Assembly (NCBI GenBank): GCA_964609215.1
Contig: CAZSQZ010000009.1
Location: 16,394-80,393, forward strand
Reading direction: 5' to 3'
Source: an uncultured Flavobacteriales bacterium
GTDB lineage: Bacteria > Bacteroidota > Bacteroidia > Flavobacteriales_D > JABDKJ01
DNA: 64,000 nt
The notes below the pieces were generated by a model. The model was given only the letters and a program-made list of their open reading frames with translations, did no database searches and was not told the DNA's origin. The translations under genes were made by a program, and so were the position numbers. Shown here piece by piece: positions 6,290-41,140 of this stretch (its first letter is position 1; every line of letters begins with the position of its first letter).

Positions 6290-7438
6290 TCAATCAAACT
6301 TTATCATTAAACGTTGTCCTTTTCTTAAATAAGCACGTCTATTTAAGCCATTATCCGCGCATAAATCCATGAGATCAATACCATATAATTGAGAAATATA
6401 GGATAGATTTTCTCCATTTTGCACAAAGTGGAGGCGAACTCCTTTGGGATATGCGGTATAACCCCATTTTGATTTTTTAAGAACTATTGTATCAGAATGC
6501 AATGTTTTATCCTTGAAAGAAATAATATGCGATGGATTTAAAGGAATACCTTTGAAACGCATTTCAAAATGTAGGTGACTTCCAGTAGATCTTCCGGAAC
6601 TTCCACCTAAACCGACTATATCTCCAGCTTCTACAATGTCCCCTGGTTTAACTTTGAAACGGTGCAGGTGTGCATAATAAGTCTCTAGTCCATTATAGTG
6701 CCTTACAACTACTAGTCTACCATAATTTCCATGATATTTGGCCAAACGCACAACACCCCCAAAACTTGCATGCACAGGATCCCAAACTTCTAGATCAATA
6801 TCATAACCATTGTGGTTTCTTCCATCCCTATATCCATATTTAGATGTAATTACTCCATCAAATGGCATGTGAAAATCACAGTTCATGTTTTCGTTTTTTA
6901 ACTGAAGCATCACTGTAGTGTCATGCTGTGTTAAATTATAACTGTAGGGATTTGCGCTTTGTGTATTCCAGGTTTTATAAAAGTAGTTTGCCGGATAAGG
7001 GGAGTTATCATACGGAATCATGAAATCAAAATCGATCTCGTCTGCTGAAAATTCGTAATGTGCTATTTGAAAATTTATTTCATTAATTAAAGCATAAGGT
7101 ATTTGATCTAAAGTAAATAGAGAGTCCAATATGCTTTGAAGTTCTCCAGGTTTTTTTCTGTTTAAGCTTTTACAAAGTTTGACCGTTTTTTGAAAATCAA
7201 CTGAAATACTATCATGTTCCAGTATTTCGTTTAGATATTGATCAAAATGACTTTGGTAGTTTTCCCAACCACTTCCTAGAATCATGTCATTACCATACAT
7301 AACGACAGCAGTGGCTGTATCTCTTGCGGTTTTCTTATCACCCTTTTTGATCTTATTCCCATCACCACTTGCAGAAAGCAGACAAAACGAAAAAAGAAAA
7401 ACAAAAAGGAAAAACCCCTTATGCTTTGAAAGTGTCAA
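6290..7438 (-). CDS. M23 family metallopeptidase with C-terminal LysM domain
   Basis: HNGYDIDLE...HLHFEMR motifs (the HxxxD and HxH of M23). C-terminal LysM-like segment (ENLSYISQLYGIDLMDLCADNGL). Signal peptide present. Confidence 0.7.
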   Translation of the reverse strand: MTLSKHKGFFLFVFLFSFCLLSASGDGNKIKKGDKKTARDTATAVVMYGNDMILGSGWENYQSHFDQYLNEILEHDSISVDFQKTVKLCKSLNRKKPGELQSILDSLFTLDQIPYALINEINFQIAHYEFSADEIDFDFMIPYDNSPYPANYFYKTWNTQSANPYSYNLTQHDTTVMLQLKNENMNCDFHMPFDGVITSKYGYRDGRNHNGYDIDLEVWDPVHASFGGVVRLAKYHGNYGRLVVVRHYNGLETYYAHLHRFKVKPGDIVEAGDIVGLGGSSGRSTGSHLHFEMRFKGIPLNPSHIISFKDKTLHSDTIVLKKSKWGYTAYPKGVRLHFVQNGENLSYISQLYGIDLMDLCADNGLNRRAYLRKGQRLMIKFD

Positions 7439-8547: not shown

Positions 8548-9102
8548 CTATTTCCATTTTATATTGCAACCCATGCTAGGCATTTGTCTTTCTGGTATGT
8601 CCTTACCATTCAATACGCTATCAAGAGCTTCACGCATGTCTTTACCAGTTACGGGAATATCTTTACCCGGACGTGAATCATCTAAACGACCTCTATAAAC
8701 GCAGTTGTCATTCGAATCAAAAAGATCAAAATCAGGGGTGCAAACTGCATCATAGGCTCTGGCAACATCTTGTGTTTCATCATATAGATAAGGAAATGGA
8801 AAATTGAGTTGCTCTCCAAGTAGCTTCATTTTGTCAGGAGCATCATCAGGATAGTTGACTGCATCATTTGACGAAATAGCTATAAATCCTATTCCCTTAT
8901 CTTTATAATCGTTAGCTAATCTTACTAATTCTTCTCTGATATGAATTACATAGGGACAATGATTGCAAATAAACATTACCAATGTTCCTTTCTCACCTTT
9001 TAAATCTTGAAAAGAATAGTTATTCCCACTAATGGTGTCCAGTAAATTAAACTCGGGAGCTTTAAATCCTAATGGAATATTTAATGTTGGAGTTAATGCC
9101 AT
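8548..9102 (-). CDS. thioredoxin-fold thiol-disulfide oxidoreductase
   Basis: CNHC (CxxC) active-site motif in a thioredoxin-like context (LVMFICNHCPYV). Confidence 0.55.
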   Translation of the reverse strand: MALTPTLNIPLGFKAPEFNLLDTISGNNYSFQDLKGEKGTLVMFICNHCPYVIHIREELVRLANDYKDKGIGFIAISSNDAVNYPDDAPDKMKLLGEQLNFPFPYLYDETQDVARAYDAVCTPDFDLFDSNDNCVYRGRLDDSRPGKDIPVTGKDMREALDSVLNGKDIPERQMPSMGCNIKWK

Positions 9103-9188: not shown

Positions 9189-9950
9189 ATGCAAAAGACA
9201 TTTATAATTACAGGTGCCGGAACGGGAATAGGAAAAGCAACAGCTCATAAATTAGCCAACGAAGGACATCGTTTAGTTTTATGTGGAAGAAGAGGTCATT
9301 TATTGACGGAGCTTGAATCGGAACTGAAAGGGGATGAACACATTACTCTAAGCTTGGATGTTTCAGATAAAAAGGCAGTGAAAGAAGCATACGATTCTAT
9401 TGGATTAAGCGATTTAAATTTGGCTGGAATTTTTGCGAATGCTGGAATAGGAGGAGAGAATGAATATGGGGATGATGATAGATGGGAACAAATTTTAAAT
9501 ATTAATTTATCTGGAACATATTATTCCATTATGGAGGCTATCCCGGCAATGAAAAAGGCAGAAGAGAAATTCAAACATATTTTAATTACTTCAAGTTGTT
9601 TGGCTAGGTTTGGAGTTCCATACTACACGGCTTACTGCGCTTCTAAAACAGGGTTGTTAGGTCTAACAAAAGCTCTGGCTATTGAATTAGCACCTTTTAA
9701 TATATTGGTAAATTCTATAACTCCAGGTTGGGTAGAAACTGAGATGGCTAAAGCTGGAATTCAAAAATTAGCAGACCATTCTAGTAAATCCTATGAAGAT
9801 GCATTTAGAGAGCAAATGGGATATGTTCCTTTAGGCAGAATGTCTGATCCAAATGAAATAGCCAGCTATGTTTCTTTTTTATTCTCGAATAAACAAACCT
9901 CAATTACTGGACAAGCGCTTGATATTAACAACGGAGCATTTATGATATGA
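9189..9950 (+). CDS. SDR family oxidoreductase
   Basis: TGAGTGIG Rossmann motif at the N-terminus. YxxxK catalytic pair (YCASK). Length 253 aa. Confidence 0.7.
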   Translation: MQKTFIITGAGTGIGKATAHKLANEGHRLVLCGRRGHLLTELESELKGDEHITLSLDVSDKKAVKEAYDSIGLSDLNLAGIFANAGIGGENEYGDDDRWEQILNINLSGTYYSIMEAIPAMKKAEEKFKHILITSSCLARFGVPYYTAYCASKTGLLGLTKALAIELAPFNILVNSITPGWVETEMAKAGIQKLADHSSKSYEDAFREQMGYVPLGRMSDPNEIASYVSFLFSNKQTSITGQALDINNGAFMI

Positions 9951-31450: not shown

Positions 31451-32551
31451 CTACGGAGGTGAACCAAGAATGTCTTTAAGTTGGCCAATCATACTGCCTT
31501 TGCCATCAACAGTAATTTCACCGATCTTGTCAGCCACTTTTTCCACGAACTCCATTTCCTTCAATTTATAGAGCATTTGGTTGTTCTCCATTAATTTTGC
31601 TGTGTTCAACATACTTCTAGTAGAAGCTGTTTCTTCTCTTCTCATGATCATGCTGGCAGCGGCTTTTTTCTCTGCTACTAAAACTTGATTCATGATTTCT
31701 TTAATGTCGCCCGGAAGAATGATATCTTTAATACCGCAAGAAATCAATTCTACTCCAAGTGCTTTGCATTCTTTATGACTTCCGCTTTTTACAAATGAGC
31801 CTGCTTGGGTTTTTAGCTCTAAGAGTTCATCAAAGCTCAAACCACCTACATAAGCTCTTAAAGACATTTGCAAAATGGTATAGAGCTGCTTTCTGAAGTC
31901 TATGTTTTTAAGCAAAGCAAGAACTGGGTCAACGACTTTAAACGCAAATTCGAAGTTGATTCTTAAGTTGGCTTTATCTTTAGTCAAGATTTCTTGGCCG
32001 CTTAACTCCATTGATTGTTGTCTCAAATCAATAATATCAACTTGAACATTAGACAATTGCTTGTAAAAGTGATAAACACCTGGAGTCAGGGCTTCAAATA
32101 ATTTACCATCCTCTTGAACTAAACCCATTTCGAAATTTCTGATTTCAATCTTTTTCAAAATGTTGTTGTTCACCAGAGCATCTAATACTTTTTTAGAAAG
32201 GTTATCCTGAACTCTTACCTCTTTCATATTTAGTGTCTGAAATGTATAAAGAGAGTTTTCTTTCCAGTAAGCATAGATACCTTCGGTAAGAATTGATTGA
32301 AGAATGTTATTTCTATAAACCAATATAACTTGTTCGTCTGTGATTTCAAGTACGTCTAGTTGCTTGTATAGTTCTTCATTTTTCAATAACAAAGCCAGAT
32401 CAATTGGTGCATCAAAGCGCATCAAGGTATTGTAAATCTTTATTGTCTTATTGCTAAAGTTCCAGTGCTTACCGCTACTTAATACTTTGATCAAATCTTG
32501 ACCTTCAAATACGAGGCCTTTTTCGTACGTTTTAATTTTTACTCTAAACAT
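31451..32551 (-). CDS. SPFH/band-7 (slipin-like) domain protein
   Basis: SPFH core (ILTKDKANLRINFEFAFKVVDP...), followed by a coiled-coil-like AEKKAAASMIMRREETAS region typical of HflK/C-stomatin relatives. Confidence 0.6.
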   Translation of the reverse strand: MFRVKIKTYEKGLVFEGQDLIKVLSSGKHWNFSNKTIKIYNTLMRFDAPIDLALLLKNEELYKQLDVLEITDEQVILVYRNNILQSILTEGIYAYWKENSLYTFQTLNMKEVRVQDNLSKKVLDALVNNNILKKIEIRNFEMGLVQEDGKLFEALTPGVYHFYKQLSNVQVDIIDLRQQSMELSGQEILTKDKANLRINFEFAFKVVDPVLALLKNIDFRKQLYTILQMSLRAYVGGLSFDELLELKTQAGSFVKSGSHKECKALGVELISCGIKDIILPGDIKEIMNQVLVAEKKAAASMIMRREETASTRSMLNTAKLMENNQMLYKLKEMEFVEKVADKIGEITVDGKGSMIGQLKDILGSPP

Positions 32552-32858
32552 GACATATCTATTTTAATTATTCATTCAATTTTTATAAAAAAAACCAACC
32601 TTTCAGATCCATCTGAATTTAGCGGAGCAAACTCAAGCATGGTATAGTTTTATGATTTACATAATATGAGTTTTAGGCTGAGAAAAGAGTGTGAATTTTA
32701 CTGGCAGCGAAATCGCGTTGAGTAAAATTCTAGTTCAATTCTGTACCTAATGCCCAGGCTTTATTCAGATTTTTCATTCCATTGTCAAGGACAATTGATG
32801 AAAAGGACCTGAAGGTTGATTTTTTGAAAATGGGAGGTATTAACTGAGCTACCTAACC

Positions 32859-32935
32859 TCAATAGGGGTGGAATCGAACCACCGACCTTCTCGTTTATGC
32901 GAGATGCTCTAACCACTTGTGTTACTATATAAAAG
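32859..32935 (-). pseudogene. tRNA-like element (5'-disrupted), with a 6-nt anticodon-like loop
   Basis: Minus-strand reading gives a canonical D-loop/3' D-stem (AGTGGTTAGAGCA), variable AGGTC and T-arm GGTGG-TTCGATT-CCACC. The 5' D-stem and acceptor partner are absent. The anticodon-position hairpin TCTCG/CATAAA/CGAGA has a 6-nt loop. Confidence 0.4.
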
Positions 32936-32959
32936 TATAGCGCGTTTTCCAATTACGCC

Positions 32960-33050
32960 ACTGTGCCACAAGCACAGACAGGACTCGAACCTGTATAACA
33001 TGGGATTTATTTTCAGCAAATCCAAGTACTGAATTCATCATCAATATAAT
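32960..33050 (-). pseudogene. tRNA-like fragment (T-arm plus extended hairpins)
   Basis: Minus-strand ACAGG-TTCGAGT-CCTGT T-arm followed by a CTGTGC/GCACAG hairpin. An upstream GGATTT...AAATCC stem has a 9-nt loop. No acceptor pairing. Confidence 0.3.
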
Positions 33051-33194
33051 TAGGAGATACTTCTCAGCATCCAATTACAACATAGTGCATTTCACACACC
33101 AAAAAGATGAACCAGTCTTTTTAATTTTTTAAAGAACGTTTCTAAAAAGTCTTAATATATCCCCGAGACAAAATTGTCTCGAGGAATTTCTTGT

Positions 33195-33270
33195 GTCTCT
33201 TGTCGGATTCGAACCGACACTCTCATAATTAAACGAGCAGATTGGCTCTAAATTCGCTTCCCTACTTTAT
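33195..33270 (-). pseudogene. tRNA-like fragment (T-arm GTCGG-TTCGAAT-CCGAC), followed by a hairpin
   Basis: Canonical T-arm on the minus strand, with no matching acceptor stem. Immediately downstream (minus sense) is a CGAGACA/TGTCTCG hairpin at 33160-33183. Confidence 0.3.
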
Positions 33271-33427
33271 TAAATATATTTCGGTGCTTCTGCAAACTCT
33301 ATCCTTCCGCAGGCGAACTACGACCGGCATCATCCAATCACTACATGGTCTGAATCAACTTTTACCATAGCACTTCCTTTTATGCTAAAGAGACAATATT
33401 TAAAGAACTTCTATTAGCTTTTGCTAA

Positions 33428-33577: not shown

Positions 33578-34270
33578 TTAACGGGCAAAATCCGTATACT
33601 TTATTTTGGTTATTACCCTTTCCCCTTTTCTATTGAATAATTCCGTTGTAGGCCTCATAATTAAGCCTTCAGCTATATAATCCGTATTCTCTGCAATGGT
33701 GGATTTGAAACCTTCTTTGACGAAAGCAATAGCTTCTTCAAGTTTCCAAATTCCCATGATGGGTACAATCCCAATATTTAATTTATTGGCGATGTCTTCA
33801 TTGGCTTCTCTATTCAACCAGAAATCTCCAATTTTTACATCGAACAAAATGAAGTCGGTCCGATCAGGAAGATAGTTTCCACCTCTTTGAATTTTTTTGC
33901 CATAACCTTCTCCATATAAGCAAACATTTGTTGCATCTGGAAAATGTTTTTGCATTTTTTCATTAGTGAATGTATCCTGAAGAACGGAAACTAAATGCGC
34001 AGGAATTTGTGCATTATCCGTTTTTCCTCCGAAACGAACTTTTATTCCATCCCACATGATTCTGATATTTGTTCCGTCAATTTTTTCGGTACAAATCCAG
34101 TTGATGTTCTTCAATAATTCGAATTCCGGTTTTGCCCAAGTTCCTTCTAGTAAGGTCTTGTGTTTATTTTTAGGATCTCTAAAAAACACCGTTTGAATTT
34201 TTTGGTATTGTTTCATTTCACTCATATTTAAATTATCCATTCGTAGGAATAGAAAGATTCGAACTCTCAT
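33578..34270 (-). CDS. minimal ATP-dependent RNA/DNA ligase-like nucleotidyltransferase (KxDG adenylyltransferase domain only)
   Basis: Motif I TEKIDGTN (KxDG), motif III-like FILFDV, motif IV AEGLIMRP (EGhhhK/R) and motif V ITKIKYTDF. The first ~15 codons of the listed ORF overlap the tRNA-Arg gene, so the true start is probably an internal Met (MSEMKQ/MKQYQ near 34216-34225). The mature protein is about 215 aa, with no OB domain. Confidence 0.55.
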   Translation of the reverse strand: MRVRIFLFLRMDNLNMSEMKQYQKIQTVFFRDPKNKHKTLLEGTWAKPEFELLKNINWICTEKIDGTNIRIMWDGIKVRFGGKTDNAQIPAHLVSVLQDTFTNEKMQKHFPDATNVCLYGEGYGKKIQRGGNYLPDRTDFILFDVKIGDFWLNREANEDIANKLNIGIVPIMGIWKLEEAIAFVKEGFKSTIAENTDYIAEGLIMRPTTELFNRKGERVITKIKYTDFAR

Positions 34271-34315
34271 CCTCTGGTTCGTAGCCAGATATTTTCTCCC
34301 TTAAACTATATTCCT
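34244..34315 (-). tRNA. tRNA-Arg (anticodon ACG)
   Basis: Folded by eye. Perfect 7-bp acceptor AGGAATA/TATTCCT. Anticodon stem TCTGG/CCAGA with loop CTACGAA. T-arm GAGAG-TTCGAAT-CTTTC with one G-U. D-loop contains GG. Discriminator A. No encoded CCA. Confidence 0.6.
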
Positions 34316-34320
34316 ATTTG

Positions 34321-34393
34321 TGGAACAGAAAGGACTCGAACCTTTATCTTCCCGTCTTCAGCGGGTCGCATTGACCATCTTTGCTACTATTCC
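34321..34393 (-). tRNA. tRNA-Phe (anticodon GAA)
   Basis: 7-bp acceptor GGAATAG/CTGTTCC with one G-U. 3-bp D stem with a GG loop. Anticodon loop CTGAAGA. Variable AGATA. T-arm AAAGG-TTCGAGT-CCTTT. Confidence 0.6.
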
Positions 34394-34395
34394 AT

Positions 34396-34468
34396 TGGGT
34401 GTCTTCGAGGCTCGAACTCTGTTCTCTTCAGTCACAATGAAGTGTTTTACCGCATAAACTAAAGACAC
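34396..34468 (-). tRNA. tRNA-His (anticodon GTG)
   Basis: Anticodon stem CTTCA/TGAAG with loop TTGTGAC. The acceptor can be drawn with G-1 and C73 followed by CCA. D stem GTTT/AAAC with a GG loop. The T-stem is weak (about 3 bp around TTCGAGC). It is separated from the Phe gene by 2 nt. Confidence 0.5.
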
Positions 34469-34474
34469 CATAAG

Positions 34475-34548
34475 TACCCCTCCTAGGATTCGAACCTAGA
34501 CTGTAAGGATTTTAAGTCCTATGCCTCTGCCAATTGGGCCAGAGGGGC
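34475..34548 (-). tRNA. atypical tRNA with Leu anticodon TAA (type-I architecture, short variable loop)
   Basis: Acceptor GCCCCTC/GAGGGGT (G1-U72). Perfect T-arm CTAGG-TTCGAAT-CCTAG. Anticodon loop CTTAAAA on a 4-bp stem. 5-nt variable loop ACAGT. 3-bp D stem with D-loop AATTGGCA. Discriminator A. Confidence 0.5.
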
Positions 34549-34686
34549 AATTAAACTTGTGCTCTGTAGGGGAGAACCCCTATTTTCTGATAGAACTTAG
34601 CGAAGCGATCTCAACGAATCCATTGGAGATCATTCCCCTTGAGTCAAAGTCAGATGTACCAGCGGTTCTACTAGCAGAGCATTAGT
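34549..34686 (-). ncRNA. unassigned structured element between tRNA genes
   Basis: The minus-strand transcript would have a 7-bp terminal helix (TGCTCTG ... CAGAGCA) and internal hairpins GATCTC[13 nt]GAGATC and TAGGGG-TTCT-CCCCTA. It does not fold as a canonical tRNA by eye. Confidence 0.25.
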
Positions 34687-34759
34687 GCGGAGAGAGAGAC
34701 TCGAACTCTCAAATACCTGATTCTAAGTCAGGCGCCTTTGCCAATTTGGCCATCTCCGC
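34686..34759 (-). tRNA. atypical tRNA with Leu anticodon TAG (type-I architecture), paralog of the TAA gene
   Basis: Perfect 7-bp acceptor GCGGAGA/TCTCCGC. Anticodon stem CCTGA/TCAGG with loop CTTAGAA. Variable TATTT. T-arm GAGAG-TTCGAGT-CTCTC. 3-bp D stem with D-loop AAATTGGCAAA. Discriminator A. Confidence 0.55.
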
Positions 34760-34834: not shown

Positions 34835-34879
34835 TATTTTGTTTGGGAAGTAGGATTATCTCACGTTTGAATTAATCCT

Positions 34880-34960
34880 AAATGATGTTCGTGAATGCAA
34901 AGCATTTCGAACCTACGACCTCCCGCGTCCAAGGCAGGTAAACAACCACCGTTATCTTCC
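34880..34960 (-). pseudogene. tRNA-like remnant carrying a T-loop motif (GGTTCGAAA), unresolved fold
   Basis: TTCGAA T-loop-like motif without a complementary T-stem. A possible acceptor-like pairing exists, GGGAGGT with ACTTCCC about 100 nt apart. The region also contains the hairpin ATCTTCCAAGAT followed by TTTTTTT. Confidence 0.25.
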
Positions 34961-35028
34961 AAGATTTTTTTGCTTAACATTCTCATGACTTCAGGAGACA
35001 GCTGAATTCAGTTGAACATTAAGCAAAG

Positions 35029-35192: not shown

Positions 35193-35199
35193 AATTCGC

Positions 35200-35300
35200 G
35201 GAGAACAAAGGAATTGCTGCGCAGATCGCTGCGCTCAGAGTTCGAACCTTCACCGCGGATATGCGGCCTCACTTAGCAGTGAGTCTAACGAACCAGTATT
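35200..35300 (-). pseudogene. degenerate type-II tRNA-like element with Ser-type anticodon GCT in a 6-nt loop
   Basis: Minus-strand hairpin CTCAC/TGCTAA/GTGAG, which has only a 6-nt loop. Variable-arm-like stem CCGC/GCGG. A TTCGAAC T-loop motif lacks a proper T-stem. No acceptor pairing was found. Confidence 0.25.
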
Positions 35301-35309
35301 TACCTATTC

Positions 35310-35360
35310 TCCATTTGCGGAAAGAGTGGGAGTCGAACCCACACGAGTCGTTATCTCCGA
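35310..35360 (-). pseudogene. tRNA-like fragment (T-arm GTGGG-TTCGACT-CCCAC)
   Basis: Canonical T-arm on the minus strand followed by TCTTTCC. Only a minihelix-scale pairing partner (GGAGATA) lies upstream. Confidence 0.25.
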
Positions 35361-35467: not shown

Positions 35468-35500
35468 AAAAAAAAAGCACCTCACGAGGAGGTGCTTTTT
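35468..35500. terminator. bidirectional rho-independent terminator hairpin
   Basis: AAAAAAAAGCACCTC-ACGAG-GAGGTGCTTTTT. Perfect 7-bp GC-rich stem flanked by an A-run and a T-run. Confidence 0.6.
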
Positions 35501-35924
35501 AAATGTCTTGATCTATTTATTTCAATCTATTTTAAATGCTTCTCCCTATAGAATTTTTTGAATTCCGGATAGAATAATCGCAGCGAACTACATCCTTGTT
35601 CTTGGACTAAGTGGGCTTGGATTATATGTTCTAATGCAATTTTCATTGTGCTTTGTTTTGTGCGCTGCAAATATTTAAACTCTTTTTCAATTATACAAGA
35701 AAAAATTAATTTAAGTTACTGATAATCAAATGTTTACGATAAATTTTTGGACATAGAAATCCCGACTCGTATTTCTCGAATTTTCTTTTTTTTCGCAATT
35801 GCCTGTCTCTCAATTGATTCATTTTTTCTATTCTATTTCAACCTTATTTTAATTTATTCATTAATTATTTTTTTCAGTGTTTTTCAATTTCATTTATTCA
35901 AGCTCTTGTTATAGAGTTTGGGAC

Positions 35925-36136: not shown

Positions 36137-37207
36137 TTATTTTGGTTGTCTAACCCGAGCATAAAATTCAGTTCTTAAGTTTCTGAGAAGCAAGTCTATT
36201 TGGTTTTTATCAGGTGAATCTTTTAAATTGGAGAACTTAAATAATAAATCAAGTTCCTGCCTTAATTTTTCTGCTTCTTTTAGAAGATATTCATACTCGA
36301 ATTCCCCATTTTTAATTGAAAGTAAAAAATCTCGATCTTTTCTTTTTACATTAATTCTTCCTTCTAGTGCTATTTCTTTGGCCATCTTGAGAAGCCTGAA
36401 TGTATGCATAATGTTTTTCGAGTCATAGTTTTTTCCATGTTTCACAGTTGTATTGTATCTCTCTTCATTTCTATTTTCCACCCAAGCCCAATATTCTTTA
36501 TGTCTCTTACAATAGGTGGAATAGCCATCTAGATTGAAAAAGAGCATGGTAAGGGCCTTTTCTCCTTTGGGTATTGAACTTAATGCAATTTCATTGGCAT
36601 TAGAGCTATTTATAATTCCTTTGTGTTGAATTGATTTGCTGTGAAAAAGACTATAACAGTCTTTCATGTTGGCTAATTTAACAAGACCACAATCTTCTTG
36701 TCGAATATTATTGTCTTTTAAGTATCGGCTAAGAGGAACTGATTTATTATGATCTAAAACAAAGCAAAAATCAAGAACTCCTTTTTTGACTTTTGACATT
36801 GGATTAACAATTTTCTTCTCAAGTCCTCTAGCTTTTTTAATCTGAGTAAATACATAGTTAGAAAATGTTTCCTTGCAACGCTTGCTCAAGAATAGATCTG
36901 TTTTCACCTTACCAAAAATGGGGTCTTTGTGCAATATGCAACCCTCCGGAACAGACAGGAGCTCAATTATATTGGGGTTATTATTAAGGCATAATTTCAG
37001 GAACTTTCTGATTTCATAATAAACAATGTCATTGCTTGGATTATTAATTTGTTCTGTATAATCGAAAGAATACAATTGCTTTTCTGGAAGAATATATACC
37101 CCTCTAATATCCGTGTCCGAATTTGGAGTAGCTAAACCATAAGCTCTACTTCCACTGATGCACTCAAAAATGATGTGACCTGATTCTTTTAATTCCTCAA
37201 GAGTCAT
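36137..37207 (-). CDS. Pol-beta superfamily nucleotidyltransferase (predicted RNA/nucleotide-modifying NTase)
   Basis: N-terminal hG[GS]x9-13Dh[DE] motif ISGSRAYGLATPNSDTDIRGV. 356 aa. Stop overlaps the start of the upstream paralog, so the two are operonic. Confidence 0.55.
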   Translation of the reverse strand: MTLEELKESGHIIFECISGSRAYGLATPNSDTDIRGVYILPEKQLYSFDYTEQINNPSNDIVYYEIRKFLKLCLNNNPNIIELLSVPEGCILHKDPIFGKVKTDLFLSKRCKETFSNYVFTQIKKARGLEKKIVNPMSKVKKGVLDFCFVLDHNKSVPLSRYLKDNNIRQEDCGLVKLANMKDCYSLFHSKSIQHKGIINSSNANEIALSSIPKGEKALTMLFFNLDGYSTYCKRHKEYWAWVENRNEERYNTTVKHGKNYDSKNIMHTFRLLKMAKEIALEGRINVKRKDRDFLLSIKNGEFEYEYLLKEAEKLRQELDLLFKFSNLKDSPDKNQIDLLLRNLRTEFYARVRQPK

Positions 37208-37950
37208 GTCAGTTCATTTATAAAAAACTCATTGAATGCAGTTGGATTCAATCTTACTTTTTTCAATGAATCCTTTTTCGATTCGTTTTCAAGTACAATT
37301 GTTTTAGCCATATTTAGCAAGTCTGTATTTATAGCAACAATTCCAGCTTCAGCAGTCGAAGCCTTTAACTGAACTAAATCGAGTAAAAGTCTTGATTCAT
37401 GATCTGAAATCAATTCAAAAAGCTCGGTAAATGAAACTGGAGGGATGGTCTTATTTTTTAAAATCCAATTGGCACATAATGCAGTTCTTATGGCGTAGAA
37501 GAATTCTTTAATAGTAAATTTTCCTTCTTTCAATTTCTCATGAAATCCTTTGTTCATACTGTGAAAATGATAGAATCCAGAAACAGGATTGAAATTTTCT
37601 TTTGCAAGAGTTCGCATATTTTCGAGTGTTTCCCTGTGAGAAAAATAGACGATTGGAGAAAATAGCCAACCTAGAAACGAAGCATTGGACTTGGCCAAAA
37701 GTTTGGAGGCTTTTTGCAAATCCCATCCAACTCCATCCAAGTCTTCTTCCGTCATAAATTGAATTGTATCATCTTCTTCCCATAGACTTAAGTATTTACG
37801 AAAGTCCTTTTTGTAAACGAAACGAACGTCATAATCTGAATCGGGAGACTCAAAACCCCAGGCCCTACTTCCAGATTCAACAGCAAAAAGAATATCTACT
37901 TCCTTCGTTTTTTCTATTTCTTTGAGTTTATTTATTATTAAGTCTTTCAT
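37204..37950 (-). CDS. Pol-beta superfamily nucleotidyltransferase, paralog of the downstream gene
   Basis: ESGSRAWGFESPDSDYDVRFVY motif (GS...DxD). 248 aa. 4-nt overlap with the next gene. Confidence 0.55.
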   Translation of the reverse strand: MKDLIINKLKEIEKTKEVDILFAVESGSRAWGFESPDSDYDVRFVYKKDFRKYLSLWEEDDTIQFMTEEDLDGVGWDLQKASKLLAKSNASFLGWLFSPIVYFSHRETLENMRTLAKENFNPVSGFYHFHSMNKGFHEKLKEGKFTIKEFFYAIRTALCANWILKNKTIPPVSFTELFELISDHESRLLLDLVQLKASTAEAGIVAINTDLLNMAKTIVLENESKKDSLKKVRLNPTAFNEFFINELT

Positions 37951-37961
37951 TTTTTTTCAAT

Positions 37962-40047
<2,086 letters not shown>

Positions 40048-40090: not shown

Positions 40091-41140
40091 TTGAAAGCTT
40101 TAATTTTGTATATGGCTCAAAATAAAAACGCTCTGATAAGATATAAAACCATTGATAAATGTCTTCAAAATCAATATAGAAAATGGACTTTGGAGGATTT
40201 AATTGATGCTTGTTCAGATGCATTGAACGAATATGAAGGACGAGATATAAATGTAAGCAAACGAACTGTTCAGCTTGATATTCAGTTAATGAGGAGTGAT
40301 AAACTTGGATATAATGCACCCATTATTGCTTATGAACGCAAATATTATCGTTATGAAGATGAGAATTATTCAATCACGAATATTCCTCTTACAGAAAATG
40401 ATATGAGTGTATTGACAGAGACGGTTGAAATGTTGAAACAGTTCAAAGATTTTTCATTGTTTTCTGAGTTGGGTGGTATTATTCATCGTCTAGAGGACAA
40501 AATTCACACGGAGAAAACTCAAAACTCTTCAGTCATTCATTTAGAAAAGAATGAGAATCTAAAAGGCTTGGAGCATTTAGATTTGCTTTATCAAGCGATT
40601 CTAAAAAAGATTTGTTTGACATTGGATTATCAATCCTTCAAGGCTAAGTCATCGAGTAGAATCGTTTTTCATCCATTTATTTTGAAAGAGTTTAACAATC
40701 GCTGGTTCGTGGTTGGAAGAAAAGGGAAGAGTAGTCCCATCATTACTTTTGCCTTAGATAGAATAATAGCTATTGACTATAATTTAGACATTCCATATTT
40801 AAACGAAGACTTTGATAGAGATGAGTATTACAAAAACACAATTGGTGTAACCGTACTTAACGAAACGCAGCTGAGAGAAGTTGATTTGAAAATTGACAAA
40901 TACAATGCACCTTATGTTTTGACCAAGCCCTTTCACCAATCGCAAGAGGTAATAGAAACAGATAGATATGGAAACGTAACGGTCAGAATCAAAGTTCATT
41001 TGAATTTCGAATTGGAACGTCTCATACTAGGTTTTGGAGATTCAATTCAAGTTCTTAAACCTAGACAATTGAAGAATAGAATAAGAAGGAAATTAAAAAA
41101 TGCGATTGAGAATTATGAGAAGGCTAAGGAACCTCATTAA
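40091..41140 (+). CDS. HTH plus WYL-domain transcriptional regulator, divergent from rtcB
   Basis: N-terminal winged-HTH-like segment (NALIRYKTIDKCL) and central WYL-like segment (NRWFVVGRKGKSSPIITFALDRI). 349 aa. The likely start is MAQNKN near 40112. Confidence 0.55.
   Translation: MKALILYMAQNKNALIRYKTIDKCLQNQYRKWTLEDLIDACSDALNEYEGRDINVSKRTVQLDIQLMRSDKLGYNAPIIAYERKYYRYEDENYSITNIPLTENDMSVLTETVEMLKQFKDFSLFSELGGIIHRLEDKIHTEKTQNSSVIHLEKNENLKGLEHLDLLYQAILKKICLTLDYQSFKAKSSSRIVFHPFILKEFNNRWFVVGRKGKSSPIITFALDRIIAIDYNLDIPYLNEDFDRDEYYKNTIGVTVLNETQLREVDLKIDKYNAPYVLTKPFHQSQEVIETDRYGNVTVRIKVHLNFELERLILGFGDSIQVLKPRQLKNRIRRKLKNAIENYEKAKEPH

Follow-up and report, generated by a model that had tools for sequence, protein, structure and literature searches.

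What does an RNA ligase that stops short of any second domain do beside an array of tRNA genes? The question is raised by a stretch of 64,000 nucleotides (nt), here called the window, from an uncultured Flavobacteriales bacterium (contig CAZSQZ010000009.1), in which a small ligase gene follows a run of tRNA genes on the minus strand. All positions are those of the window unless a related locus is named. On sequence and predicted structure the encoded protein is a one-domain, Rnl2-like, ATP-dependent adenylyltransferase RNA ligase. We suggest that it probably seals tRNA breaks with 3'-OH and 5'-PO4 ends within an RNA-repair operon, where it would complement RtcB and RlaP.

The ligase gene and its product

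The gene and the tRNA that precedes it are placed as follows.

33578-34216, minus strand: ligase coding sequence, 212 amino acids (aa) plus stop; predicted stand-alone Rnl2-like adenylyltransferase-domain RNA ligase, nucleophile K45 in TEKIDGTN (profiles, alignments, fold)
34217-34270, minus strand: spurious 18-codon N-terminal extension of the mechanically called open reading frame (ORF); 34243-34270 lie within tRNA-Arg (ORF list, tRNA calls, alignment)
34243-34315, minus strand: tRNA-Arg(ACG), last of the intact tRNAs in the array; 26 nt without a terminator separate its 3' end from the ligase ATG (ARAGORN, Rfam)

The Pfam family PF09414 (RNA_ligase) matches with E 1.3e-17 and 64.9 bits against a cut-off of 27, spanning model positions 2-171 of 171 and aa 57-224 of the 230-aa ORF. 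PHROG 548, 'RNA ligase', matches with E 7e-25, and residues 1-210 lie on positions 3-233 of this 341-position phage Rnl2 profile. Both matches are far beyond chance, so the KxDG motif that had suggested a ligase to the first-pass annotation is not fortuitous. The nucleotidyltransferase motifs I, III, IV and V that it had listed are all present and in order. In the numbering of the 212-aa protein they are K45 in TEKIDGTN (I), E103 (III), E183/K188 (IV) and K204/K206 (V), with F125-D126 as motif IIIa. Across 51 homologues K45, E103, F125, E183, K204 and K206 are invariant, and at least 90% of them keep D126 and K188. Motif I, KIDGTN, is of the classical KxDG form rather than KxHG, the signature of Rnl2 and Rnl5 (PMC1807946), and its Asp is kept in at least 90% of homologues. 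The chain ends 6 residues past motif V with no C-terminal or OB domain, just as had been claimed, and the part of PHROG 548 that it leaves uncovered is the C-terminal third of phage Rnl2-type enzymes.

The closest known structure, by sequence as well as by fold, is the N-domain of T4 Rnl2 (1S68, 2HVR). With the family profile 1s68 is the best sequence match in the PDB (E 4e-8), and the alignment spans motifs I to V. The AlphaFold model of the ligase has a pLDDT of 92, and its top Foldseek matches are 1s68/2hvr (TM 0.70-0.72), followed by NgrRnl, TbREL1 and archaeal Rnl3 enzymes; the predicted fold is that of an Rnl2-type nucleotidyltransferase. All catalytic residues align, K35, E99, F119, E204, K225 and K227 of T4 Rnl2 corresponding to K45, E103, F125, E183, K204 and K206 here. 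Hence, as judged from alignment and model, the protein has all the features of sequence and fold that mark an ATP-dependent RNA ligase. However, T4 Rnl2 has an all-helical C domain and KIHG in motif I, whereas the ligase here lacks the C domain, reads KIDG and shares only ~20% identity.

None of the named ligase classes takes it in fully, as NCBIfam gives only sub-threshold matches to Rnl2, DraRnl-type and archaeal ligases. TIGR02307 (Rnl2) scores 36 bits against a cut-off of 197, and the all-helical C-terminal domain of that class is missing. TIGR02306 (Rnl5) scores 19.7 bits against 151, with ~38 residues before motif I and no OB-like module. The Rnl5 enzymes DraRnl and NgrRnl, which are nick-sealing RNA repair enzymes, likewise have an Rnl2-like nucleotidyltransferase domain without a C-terminal domain; unlike the ligase here, they carry KxHG and, at the N-terminus, an OB-like module of ~125 aa that is essential. 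TIGR01209 (Rnl3: Pab1020/MthRnl) scores 17 bits against 136.9 with a weaker fold match, and Rnl3 enzymes comprise N-terminal, dimerisation and C-terminal domains of ~380 aa in total, whereas the ligase has 212 aa. Compared with the orthologue of the related locus L083 (relatives are cited by such numbers below), dN is 0.06 and dS is 0.66; with dN/dS ~0.09 the gene is, by these substitution rates, under strong purifying selection.

The start of the gene needs correction. The mechanical ORF runs from 33578 to 34270 on the minus strand (230 aa, ATG start; ORF finder), and its 5' end had been described as running through tRNA-Arg. The overlap is real and is a longest-ORF artefact, the ATG at 34270 lying inside the tRNA; with tRNA-Arg(ACG) placed at 34243/34244-34315 by ARAGORN and Rfam, it amounts to 27-28 nt or ~9 codons, not to the ~15 codons first counted. 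The upper end of 34315 once given to the gene belongs to the 5' end of the tRNA, and that of the ORF is 34270. Further in-frame ATGs lie at 34240, 34225 and 34216, and the internal Met start expected near 34216-34225 is found. In an alignment of 22 homologues conservation begins at M19 (MKxYxKIQT, the ATG at 34216), and the few extensions upstream of M19 are unrelated and not conserved, so that these homologues have no conserved longer N-terminus. Public collections contain a 100% identical protein, encoded on a JGI metagenome contig of 123 kb, whose called length is 212 aa. Because homologue conservation starts at ATG 34216 and the identical public protein has this length, the true ligase gene is, on this comparison, 33578-34216 on the minus strand with 212 aa. 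The gene is also not strictly nested inside the tRNA array, as had been thought: all 8 intact tRNAs lie upstream of it, and only tRNA-like RNAs follow downstream. True tRNAs flank the ligase on both sides in Chryseolinea relatives, with RlaP or RtcB-Band-7-WYL nearby.

A large and mostly phage-borne family

The ligase is no oddity but a member of a very large, mostly phage-borne and already annotated family. A homologue search finds more than 7,900 homologues at E <1e-5, nearly all of 209-221 aa, and an exhaustive profile search yields 1,397 clusters at 50% identity with E <=1e-30. The best 150 of these 1,397 clusters are almost all 202-245 aa long and match over their full length; therefore the one-domain form is the norm of the family. 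It is carried by 183 sequenced phages, including crAss-like phages, Lak megaphages and Klebsiella and Streptomyces phages, in which it is already annotated as 'RNA ligase'. The closest relatives of the ligase (78-84% identical) are solitary genes on phage-like contigs.

In one of these relatives, just upstream of the ligase, there is a 73-aa ORF that is an internally deleted RtcB (L143 9556-9777; L144 5167-5388). Of that protein the first 30 and the last 46 residues are left, with 50-56% identity to the RtcB of the window. This remnant shows that phages had an ancestral RtcB-ligase pair. Ligase and RtcB are thus a mobile pair common to phages and bacterial repair operons.

A predicted RNA-repair operon around the ligase

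The genes around the ligase are ordered on the minus strand as RtcB, a 225-aa protein, RlaP, a longer RlaP, a small ORF with a terminator-like hairpin, the tRNA array, the ligase and Band-7, with ~1 kb of non-coding DNA between the last two.

40091-41140, plus strand: WYL/WCX-domain regulator, divergently transcribed (profile matches; arrangement kept in L083, L147, L148 and L008)
38641-40026, minus strand: RtcB-family RNA ligase, 461 aa (profile matches)
37962-38639, minus strand: 225-aa all-alpha helical-repeat protein (HEAT/PUF-like), no enzyme fold (homologue search, predicted structure)
37204-37950, minus strand: RlaP-family nucleotidyltransferase, 248 aa, full-length Pfam match (PF10127)
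36137-37207, minus strand: RlaP-family nucleotidyltransferase, long paralogue, 356 aa (PF10127)
35527-35646, minus strand: small conserved ORF (MKIALEHI...C..YPEF...), ~39 aa, located after the second RlaP gene and before the terminator
35468-35500, minus strand: intrinsic-terminator-like hairpin and T-run directly upstream of the array (read from sequence; kept in L083, L145 and L148)
31451-32551, minus strand: SPFH/Band-7 protein, 366 aa, last gene of the operon (profile matches)

RlaP is named for its association with RNA ligases. RtcB and Band-7 lie on the same strand in the window, and their pairing is kept in L083 and L148; in L008 they are adjacent, on the strand opposite the ligase. 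The 225-aa protein has ~107 homologues, mostly in Flavobacteriaceae, a CxCC motif and no Pfam family. Because it is confidently predicted to be an all-alpha helical repeat whose only fold neighbours are HEAT/PUF-like, it is probably an RNA- or protein-binding scaffold and not an end-healing enzyme. PADLOC recognises no operon protein as a defence component except the WYL domain. The operon sits among chromosomal housekeeping genes with flanking synteny identical in L083, and its flat GC content reveals no compositional island. A sigma-70 promoter scan gives 30 sites against 33 expected, with a scan model that does not cover Bacteroidota promoters.

The small ORF occurs also in L083 and L148 and, frameshifted, in L145. 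It contains 11-12 consecutive codons all read by tRNAs of the array. Together with the hairpin it is a possible leader or attenuator of the array; against this idea, its conservation looks amino-acid-level (MKI..EHI..C..YP) and no clear antiterminator is found.

[quoted passage not shown] With that system, as the citing summary gives it, the window locus shares RtcB, Band-7, the tRNA-like RNA beside Band-7, and RlaP. Beyond what this summary describes, it has the multi-tRNA array, the ATP-dependent second ligase, the WYL regulator and the helical-repeat protein.

Conservation of the context in related loci

A search of genomes with the ligase profile found 80 loci. In 10 of the 80 at least two same-strand tRNAs lie within 4 kb of the ligase, and one of these 10, L042, looks like an ordinary Thr-Tyr-Gly-Thr cluster. 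L083 has the same architecture as the window with a ligase 88% identical. L145/L146 also share the architecture (ligase 78% identical), with different flanks and no RtcB in view. RlaP genes flank L007 and L016 (~7-8 kb off, opposite strand) and L064. Farther away, the gammaproteobacterial L047 combines six tRNAs, RtcB and the ligase, RtcB adjoining the ligase; L055 (Akkermansiaceae) has ten tRNAs, Ro60/TROVE, RtcB, the ligase and HNH; and in L078, a prophage-like region of Lachnospiraceae with a phage replication module, 13 tRNAs stand beside the ligase. Taken together, the family occurs beside tRNA arrays with RtcB, Ro60 or RlaP in at least four phyla.

L148 has WYL, RtcB, two RlaP, an RtcB2-PrfH pair, a TPR protein, a short tRNA array, a non-coding RNA and Band-7, and no ligase. 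Because the operon exists there without it, the ligase is an accessory module. In L148 (7998-19020) and L147 (8512-19007) the operon is merged with an RtcB2-PrfH (RF-1 family)-TPR module under the WYL regulator, and from their gene content these two loci are large composite RNA-repair islands under that regulator. The RtcB2-PrfH-TPR module is known for the repair of ribosomes cut by colicin E3.

The tRNA array and its palindromic elements

The array comprises 8 intact and 4 decayed tRNA genes. The intact ones lie on the same strand between 35192 and 34243 in the order Cys, Tyr, Gln, Leu(TAG), Leu(TAA), His, Phe, Arg(ACG). Aligning the window with L083 and L145 revealed the decayed genes, which escape ARAGORN and Rfam and resemble plain spacers; they are the apparent 'gaps' of the array. 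In addition to tRNA-Arg, the array consists of the following parts.

34320-34548, minus strand: tRNA-Phe(GAA), tRNA-His(GTG) and a short 75-nt tRNA-Leu(TAA) (ARAGORN, Rfam)
34557-34680, minus strand: decayed tRNA-Glu(TTC)-like gene with a 52-nt palindromic mini-element in reverse orientation in the anticodon loop and a 3-nt T-loop deletion (intact orthologue L083 9492-9564)
34685-34835, minus strand: tRNA-Leu(TAG) in the short 75-nt form and tRNA-Gln(TTG) (ARAGORN, Rfam)
34842-34963, minus strand: interrupted tRNA-Pro(TGG)-like gene with a ~50-nt T-loop insertion after TTCGAA (intact orthologue L083 9259-9331)
35028-35192, minus strand: tRNA-Tyr(GTA) and tRNA-Cys(GCA) (ARAGORN, Rfam)
35198-35312, minus strand: interrupted tRNA-Ser(GCT)-like gene; T-loop holding a 28-nt mini-element, anticodon loop with a 1-nt deletion (intact orthologue L083 8909-8996)
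35317-35455, minus strand: interrupted tRNA-Ser(TGA)-like gene; its anticodon loop holds a ~50-nt mini-element directly 3' of the anticodon (intact orthologue L145 6749-6836)

Thus 4 of the 12 tRNA genes hold insertions of 28-52 nt in the anticodon loop or T-loop, always after GAA. Other tRNAs are interrupted in the relatives, namely Cys and Phe in L083 (~9054-9085 and ~9866-9897) and a Tyr-like gene in L145 (~7127-7265), and the insertions are therefore polymorphic in presence and absence. They are copies of a small palindromic element with the core CTNAGCRNAGCG in flavobacterial arrays and GCTTTAGCGAAGG in Chryseolinea. All three core copies of the 64-kb window lie in the array, at 34596(+), 35238(-) and 35417(-). 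In the Chryseolinea arrays (elements at L007 11586-12311, L009 11610-12401 and L016 8991-9769) an analogous hairpin element follows nearly every tRNA; all 4-7 copies per locus are inside the array, and in two of three species one has landed in the anticodon loop of tRNA-His. Within the DNA available the palindromic elements occur in both orientations, in spacers as well as in tRNA loops, and only inside arrays; possibly they are sites of recombination or processing and so drive the turnover of the arrays.

The interrupted genes carry extra lesions besides the 1-nt anticodon-loop and 3-nt T-loop deletions, namely a GG to GA change in the D-loop and an acceptor mismatch. Rfam gives no match in the tRNA-loop insertions. 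Introns or ribozymes were considered for these insertions and rejected as the principal explanation, in view of both orientations, the spacer copies, the extra lesions and the lack of an Rfam match. On these alignments we read the insertions as DNA-level events that make pseudogenes in a fast-turnover array, not as introns.

A scan of viral contigs for the T-loop insertion motif found none, and metagenomes gave 54 matches, mostly chance ones in GC-rich coding DNA. An exception among the latter is a tRNA-Gly(GCC) followed by tandem 137-nt units (L090 485-880, L139 7885-8125, L126 5515-5700, L115, L123, L132). Each unit has a 22/23 match to the insertion of the window and ends with a copy of the 3' end of the tRNA.

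The tRNAs themselves are unusual. Both tRNA-Leu genes (34474-34548 and 34685-34759, minus strand) are 75 nt long without a long variable arm and resemble phage tRNA-Leu at 78-83% identity. No CCA is encoded in the array tRNAs. One and the same backbone bears the anticodon ACG in the window and in L083, and TCT and CCA in L145; L083 also has an extra tRNA with the anticodon TTA, which would read UAA. Such non-canonical tRNAs are found at L083 9655-9728 and at L145 7934-8008 and 8290-8361, and array content turns over fast between relatives. In the array of L055 (5297-6860) most T-loops read GTGCAA or similar instead of GTTCGA (U55 replaced), and tRNA-Asn and tRNA-Lys of Chryseolinea have GGATCG (T54 replaced). 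Judged by gene sequence, the T-loops of these repair-operon tRNAs deviate systematically.

tRNA-like RNAs downstream of the ligase

Two putative tRNA-like RNAs lie between the ligase and Band-7.

33190-33393, minus strand: ~200-nt tRNA-like RNA; its 7-bp acceptor stem is GTCTCTT/AAGAGAC, its T-arm is GTCGGTTCGAATCCGAC, and an insert within it is long
32838-33005, minus strand: tRNA-like RNA beside Band-7; it combines two T-arms and a closed acceptor-like hairpin with a D-like arm and anticodon-like arms (weak Rfam YrlA match; RNAalifold)

The RNA at 32838-33005 aligns with L083, L145 and L148, and RNAalifold on the four loci gives 38 consensus pairs, 12 of them with compensatory changes. It is made up of a T-arm, the acceptor-like hairpin, D-like and anticodon-like arms, a further stem-loop and the second T-arm; the anticodon-like arm reads TAG in two loci. 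From this conserved folding it is probably the predicted, never validated 'b7a-tRNA', with a YrlA-like topology. The RNA at 33190-33393 is ~99% identical to its counterpart in L083, although dS reaches 0.66 in the neighbouring ligase gene; L145 lacks this RNA. A nearly invariant structured region of ~200 nt also follows the ligase in Chryseolinea (L007 10700-10900; also L009 and L016). It has a tRNA-like acceptor (GTGGCGCG/CGCGCCAC) and a T-arm-like hairpin, and is followed by a conserved 116-aa ORF.

Proposed mechanism

We suggest the following scheme of repair. The WYL protein would control the operon. The ligase is presumably transcribed at the 3' end of a tRNA-mRNA co-transcript, since it shares the strand with the array, follows it after a 26-nt gap and has no terminator in front, and the message would be freed by tRNA processing. 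RtcB would join the 2',3'-cyclic-phosphate and 5'-OH ends left by metal-independent tRNases. On trimmed 3' ends RlaP would restore one or two nucleotides, giving a 3'-OH that RtcB cannot use; RlaP is reported to add 1-2 NMP to RNA 3'-OH ends, which suits 5'-phosphate ligases, not RtcB (PMC12776372). The Rnl2-like ligase would then seal 3'-OH/5'-PO4 breaks in tRNA stem-loops, especially after rebuilding by RlaP. By the chemistry of its superfamily, Lys45 would be adenylylated by ATP, the AMP passed to the RNA 5'-phosphate, and the break closed by attack of the 3'-OH. T4 Rnl2 depends on its C domain to recognise nicks and to carry out step 2; lacking that domain, the ligase should either have sufficient substrate binding of its own or borrow it from Band-7, the helical-repeat protein or a tRNA-like RNA. 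The co-expressed array may supply replacement, spare or decoy tRNAs.

Nick sealing of tRNA or other RNA had already been suggested from the position of the gene alone. The suggestion is strengthened by RtcB, two RlaP, WYL, Band-7 and tRNA-like RNAs in the operon, and by the recurrence of the family beside tRNA arrays, RtcB and Ro60 in other phyla, while the exact substrate is what we infer. In phages, too, RNA ligases, RlaP and tRNAs co-occur, as described for jumbo phages (PMC7824862).

Several points weigh against this scheme. Many copies of the ligase are solitary phage genes, and ~85% of the genome loci with the ligase show no tRNA array or repair gene in the available flanks; its role in the operon is thus one of the uses to which a versatile module is put. 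Among the operon's proteins no polynucleotide 5'-kinase or 3'-phosphatase is recognised, which leaves the source of 5'-PO4 ends unexplained. WYL regulation and co-transcription with the array are read from the arrangement of the genes only, and the literature yielded no biochemical study or enzyme assay of the one-domain family. Finally, the N-domain of T4 Rnl2 seals pre-adenylylated nicks by itself, as the first-pass annotation had noted in agreement with PMC1807946, but without its C domain T4 Rnl2 fails in composite nick sealing (PMC1807946), so the full activity of a one-domain ligase is not guaranteed.

Alternative explanations

The last point leads to a more modest enzyme, which like the N-domain of T4 Rnl2 self-adenylylates and either seals only pre-adenylylated 5' ends, relying on some other activity to adenylylate the RNA 5' end, or needs a trans-acting partner to bind the substrate. 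The absence of the Rnl2 domain for nick recognition and step 2 (PMC1807946) speaks for it, and candidate scaffolds (Band-7, the helical-repeat protein, the tRNA-like RNA) are conserved in the operon. However, the family is often solitary in phages, where none of these partners is present, and an N-terminal fragment of TbREL1 is active alone (PMC4599027), so that one-domain ligation is possible; we regard a partial-reaction ligase as rather improbable. We would give somewhat more weight, while still holding it unlikely, to the idea that array and ligase are a domesticated counter-defence cassette taken over from a phage, whose main job is tRNA replacement, the ligase serving phage-type tRNAs and not the general repair of host tRNAs. 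Its strength lies in the closest ligase relatives on phage-like contigs, the 183 phages with the family, the 13 tRNAs beside the ligase in the phage replication module of L078, the phage-like 75-nt tRNA-Leu genes, the RtcB remnant of the phage copy and the rapid array turnover. Yet chromosomal housekeeping genes surround the operon, synteny with L083 is identical, GC is flat, the ligase is under strong purifying selection in its bacterial setting, and this is an account of origin more than another mechanism, compatible with the sealing of tRNA breaks proposed above.

The interrupted tRNAs invite a bolder thought, that the loop-interrupted tRNAs and tRNA-like transcripts of the operon are cut and then rejoined or closed by its two ligases. 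It is very improbable in our judgement; if true, it would mean a protein-dependent pathway of tRNA splicing or assembly in bacteria, tied to a cassette-like array whose turnover is driven by palindromic elements. That the ligase matures the RNAs of its own operon, joining exons of interrupted tRNAs or closing or circularising tRNA-like RNAs, seems to us a faint prospect. The interruption of four of the twelve array tRNA genes in the window, and of different ones in L083, L145, L007 and L016, the two RNA ligases encoded alongside and a compensatory acceptor-stem change retained in the interrupted tRNA-Phe of L083 would agree with it, but the insertions are palindromic mini-elements that occur also in spacers and in both orientations, the interrupted genes bear extra damaging mutations, and no splicing endonuclease is recognised. 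Hardly any credit is due to a DNA ligase or to a non-functional relic that lies beside tRNA genes by chance. The classical KxDG motif occurs in DNA ligases and NCBIfam gives a weak DNA-ligase match (E 0.007); nevertheless all strong sequence and fold matches are RNA ligases, DNA ligases cannot do without an OB domain in step 1 (PMC1807946), RNA-repair genes accompany the ligase again and again across phyla, and dN/dS 0.09 excludes a relic.

Comparison with known systems and significance

In addition to the Band-7/b7a-tRNA system, two known systems resemble the proposed one. The damage-inducible Salmonella operon rsr-yrlBA-rtcBA joins RtcB to a scaffold protein (Ro60) and a tRNA-mimicking RNA with a closed acceptor-like stem; the RNA at 32838-33005 shares the topology of its YrlA, and L055 has Ro60-RtcB-ligase. 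The window operon differs in having Band-7 instead of Ro60 and WYL instead of RtcR, and RtcA is absent. In phage T4, Pnkp and Rnl1 repair tRNA, the ATP-dependent ligase sealing broken anticodon loops as proposed here; however, Rnl1 belongs to another ligase clade with a tRNA-specific C domain, and the window has no recognised end-healing kinase-phosphatase and a chromosomal, bacterial setting. Phage-encoded tRNAs, for their part, compensate for tRNA attack (PMC12776372, PMC7824862).

The ligase is a member of a known, annotated family, and the operon represents a kind that was predicted in 2016. What makes the locus interesting is a stand-alone ligase domain whose biochemistry can be tested, the way this domain fits with RlaP, and a tRNA array that is unusual and evolves fast. 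In Shuman's model of how ligases evolved (PMC1807946) the hypothetical ancestor is an adenylyltransferase domain on its own, of which this ligase is a natural example, and the one-domain family bears on whether a single domain suffices for RNA ligation. A 5'-phosphate ligase beside RtcB and two RlaP could close a gap in repair to which the 2025 study of RlaP drew attention, as 3'-OH ends extended by RlaP cannot be joined by RtcB (PMC12776372). The locus could serve as a tractable model for how bacteria survive tRNA-cleaving toxins.

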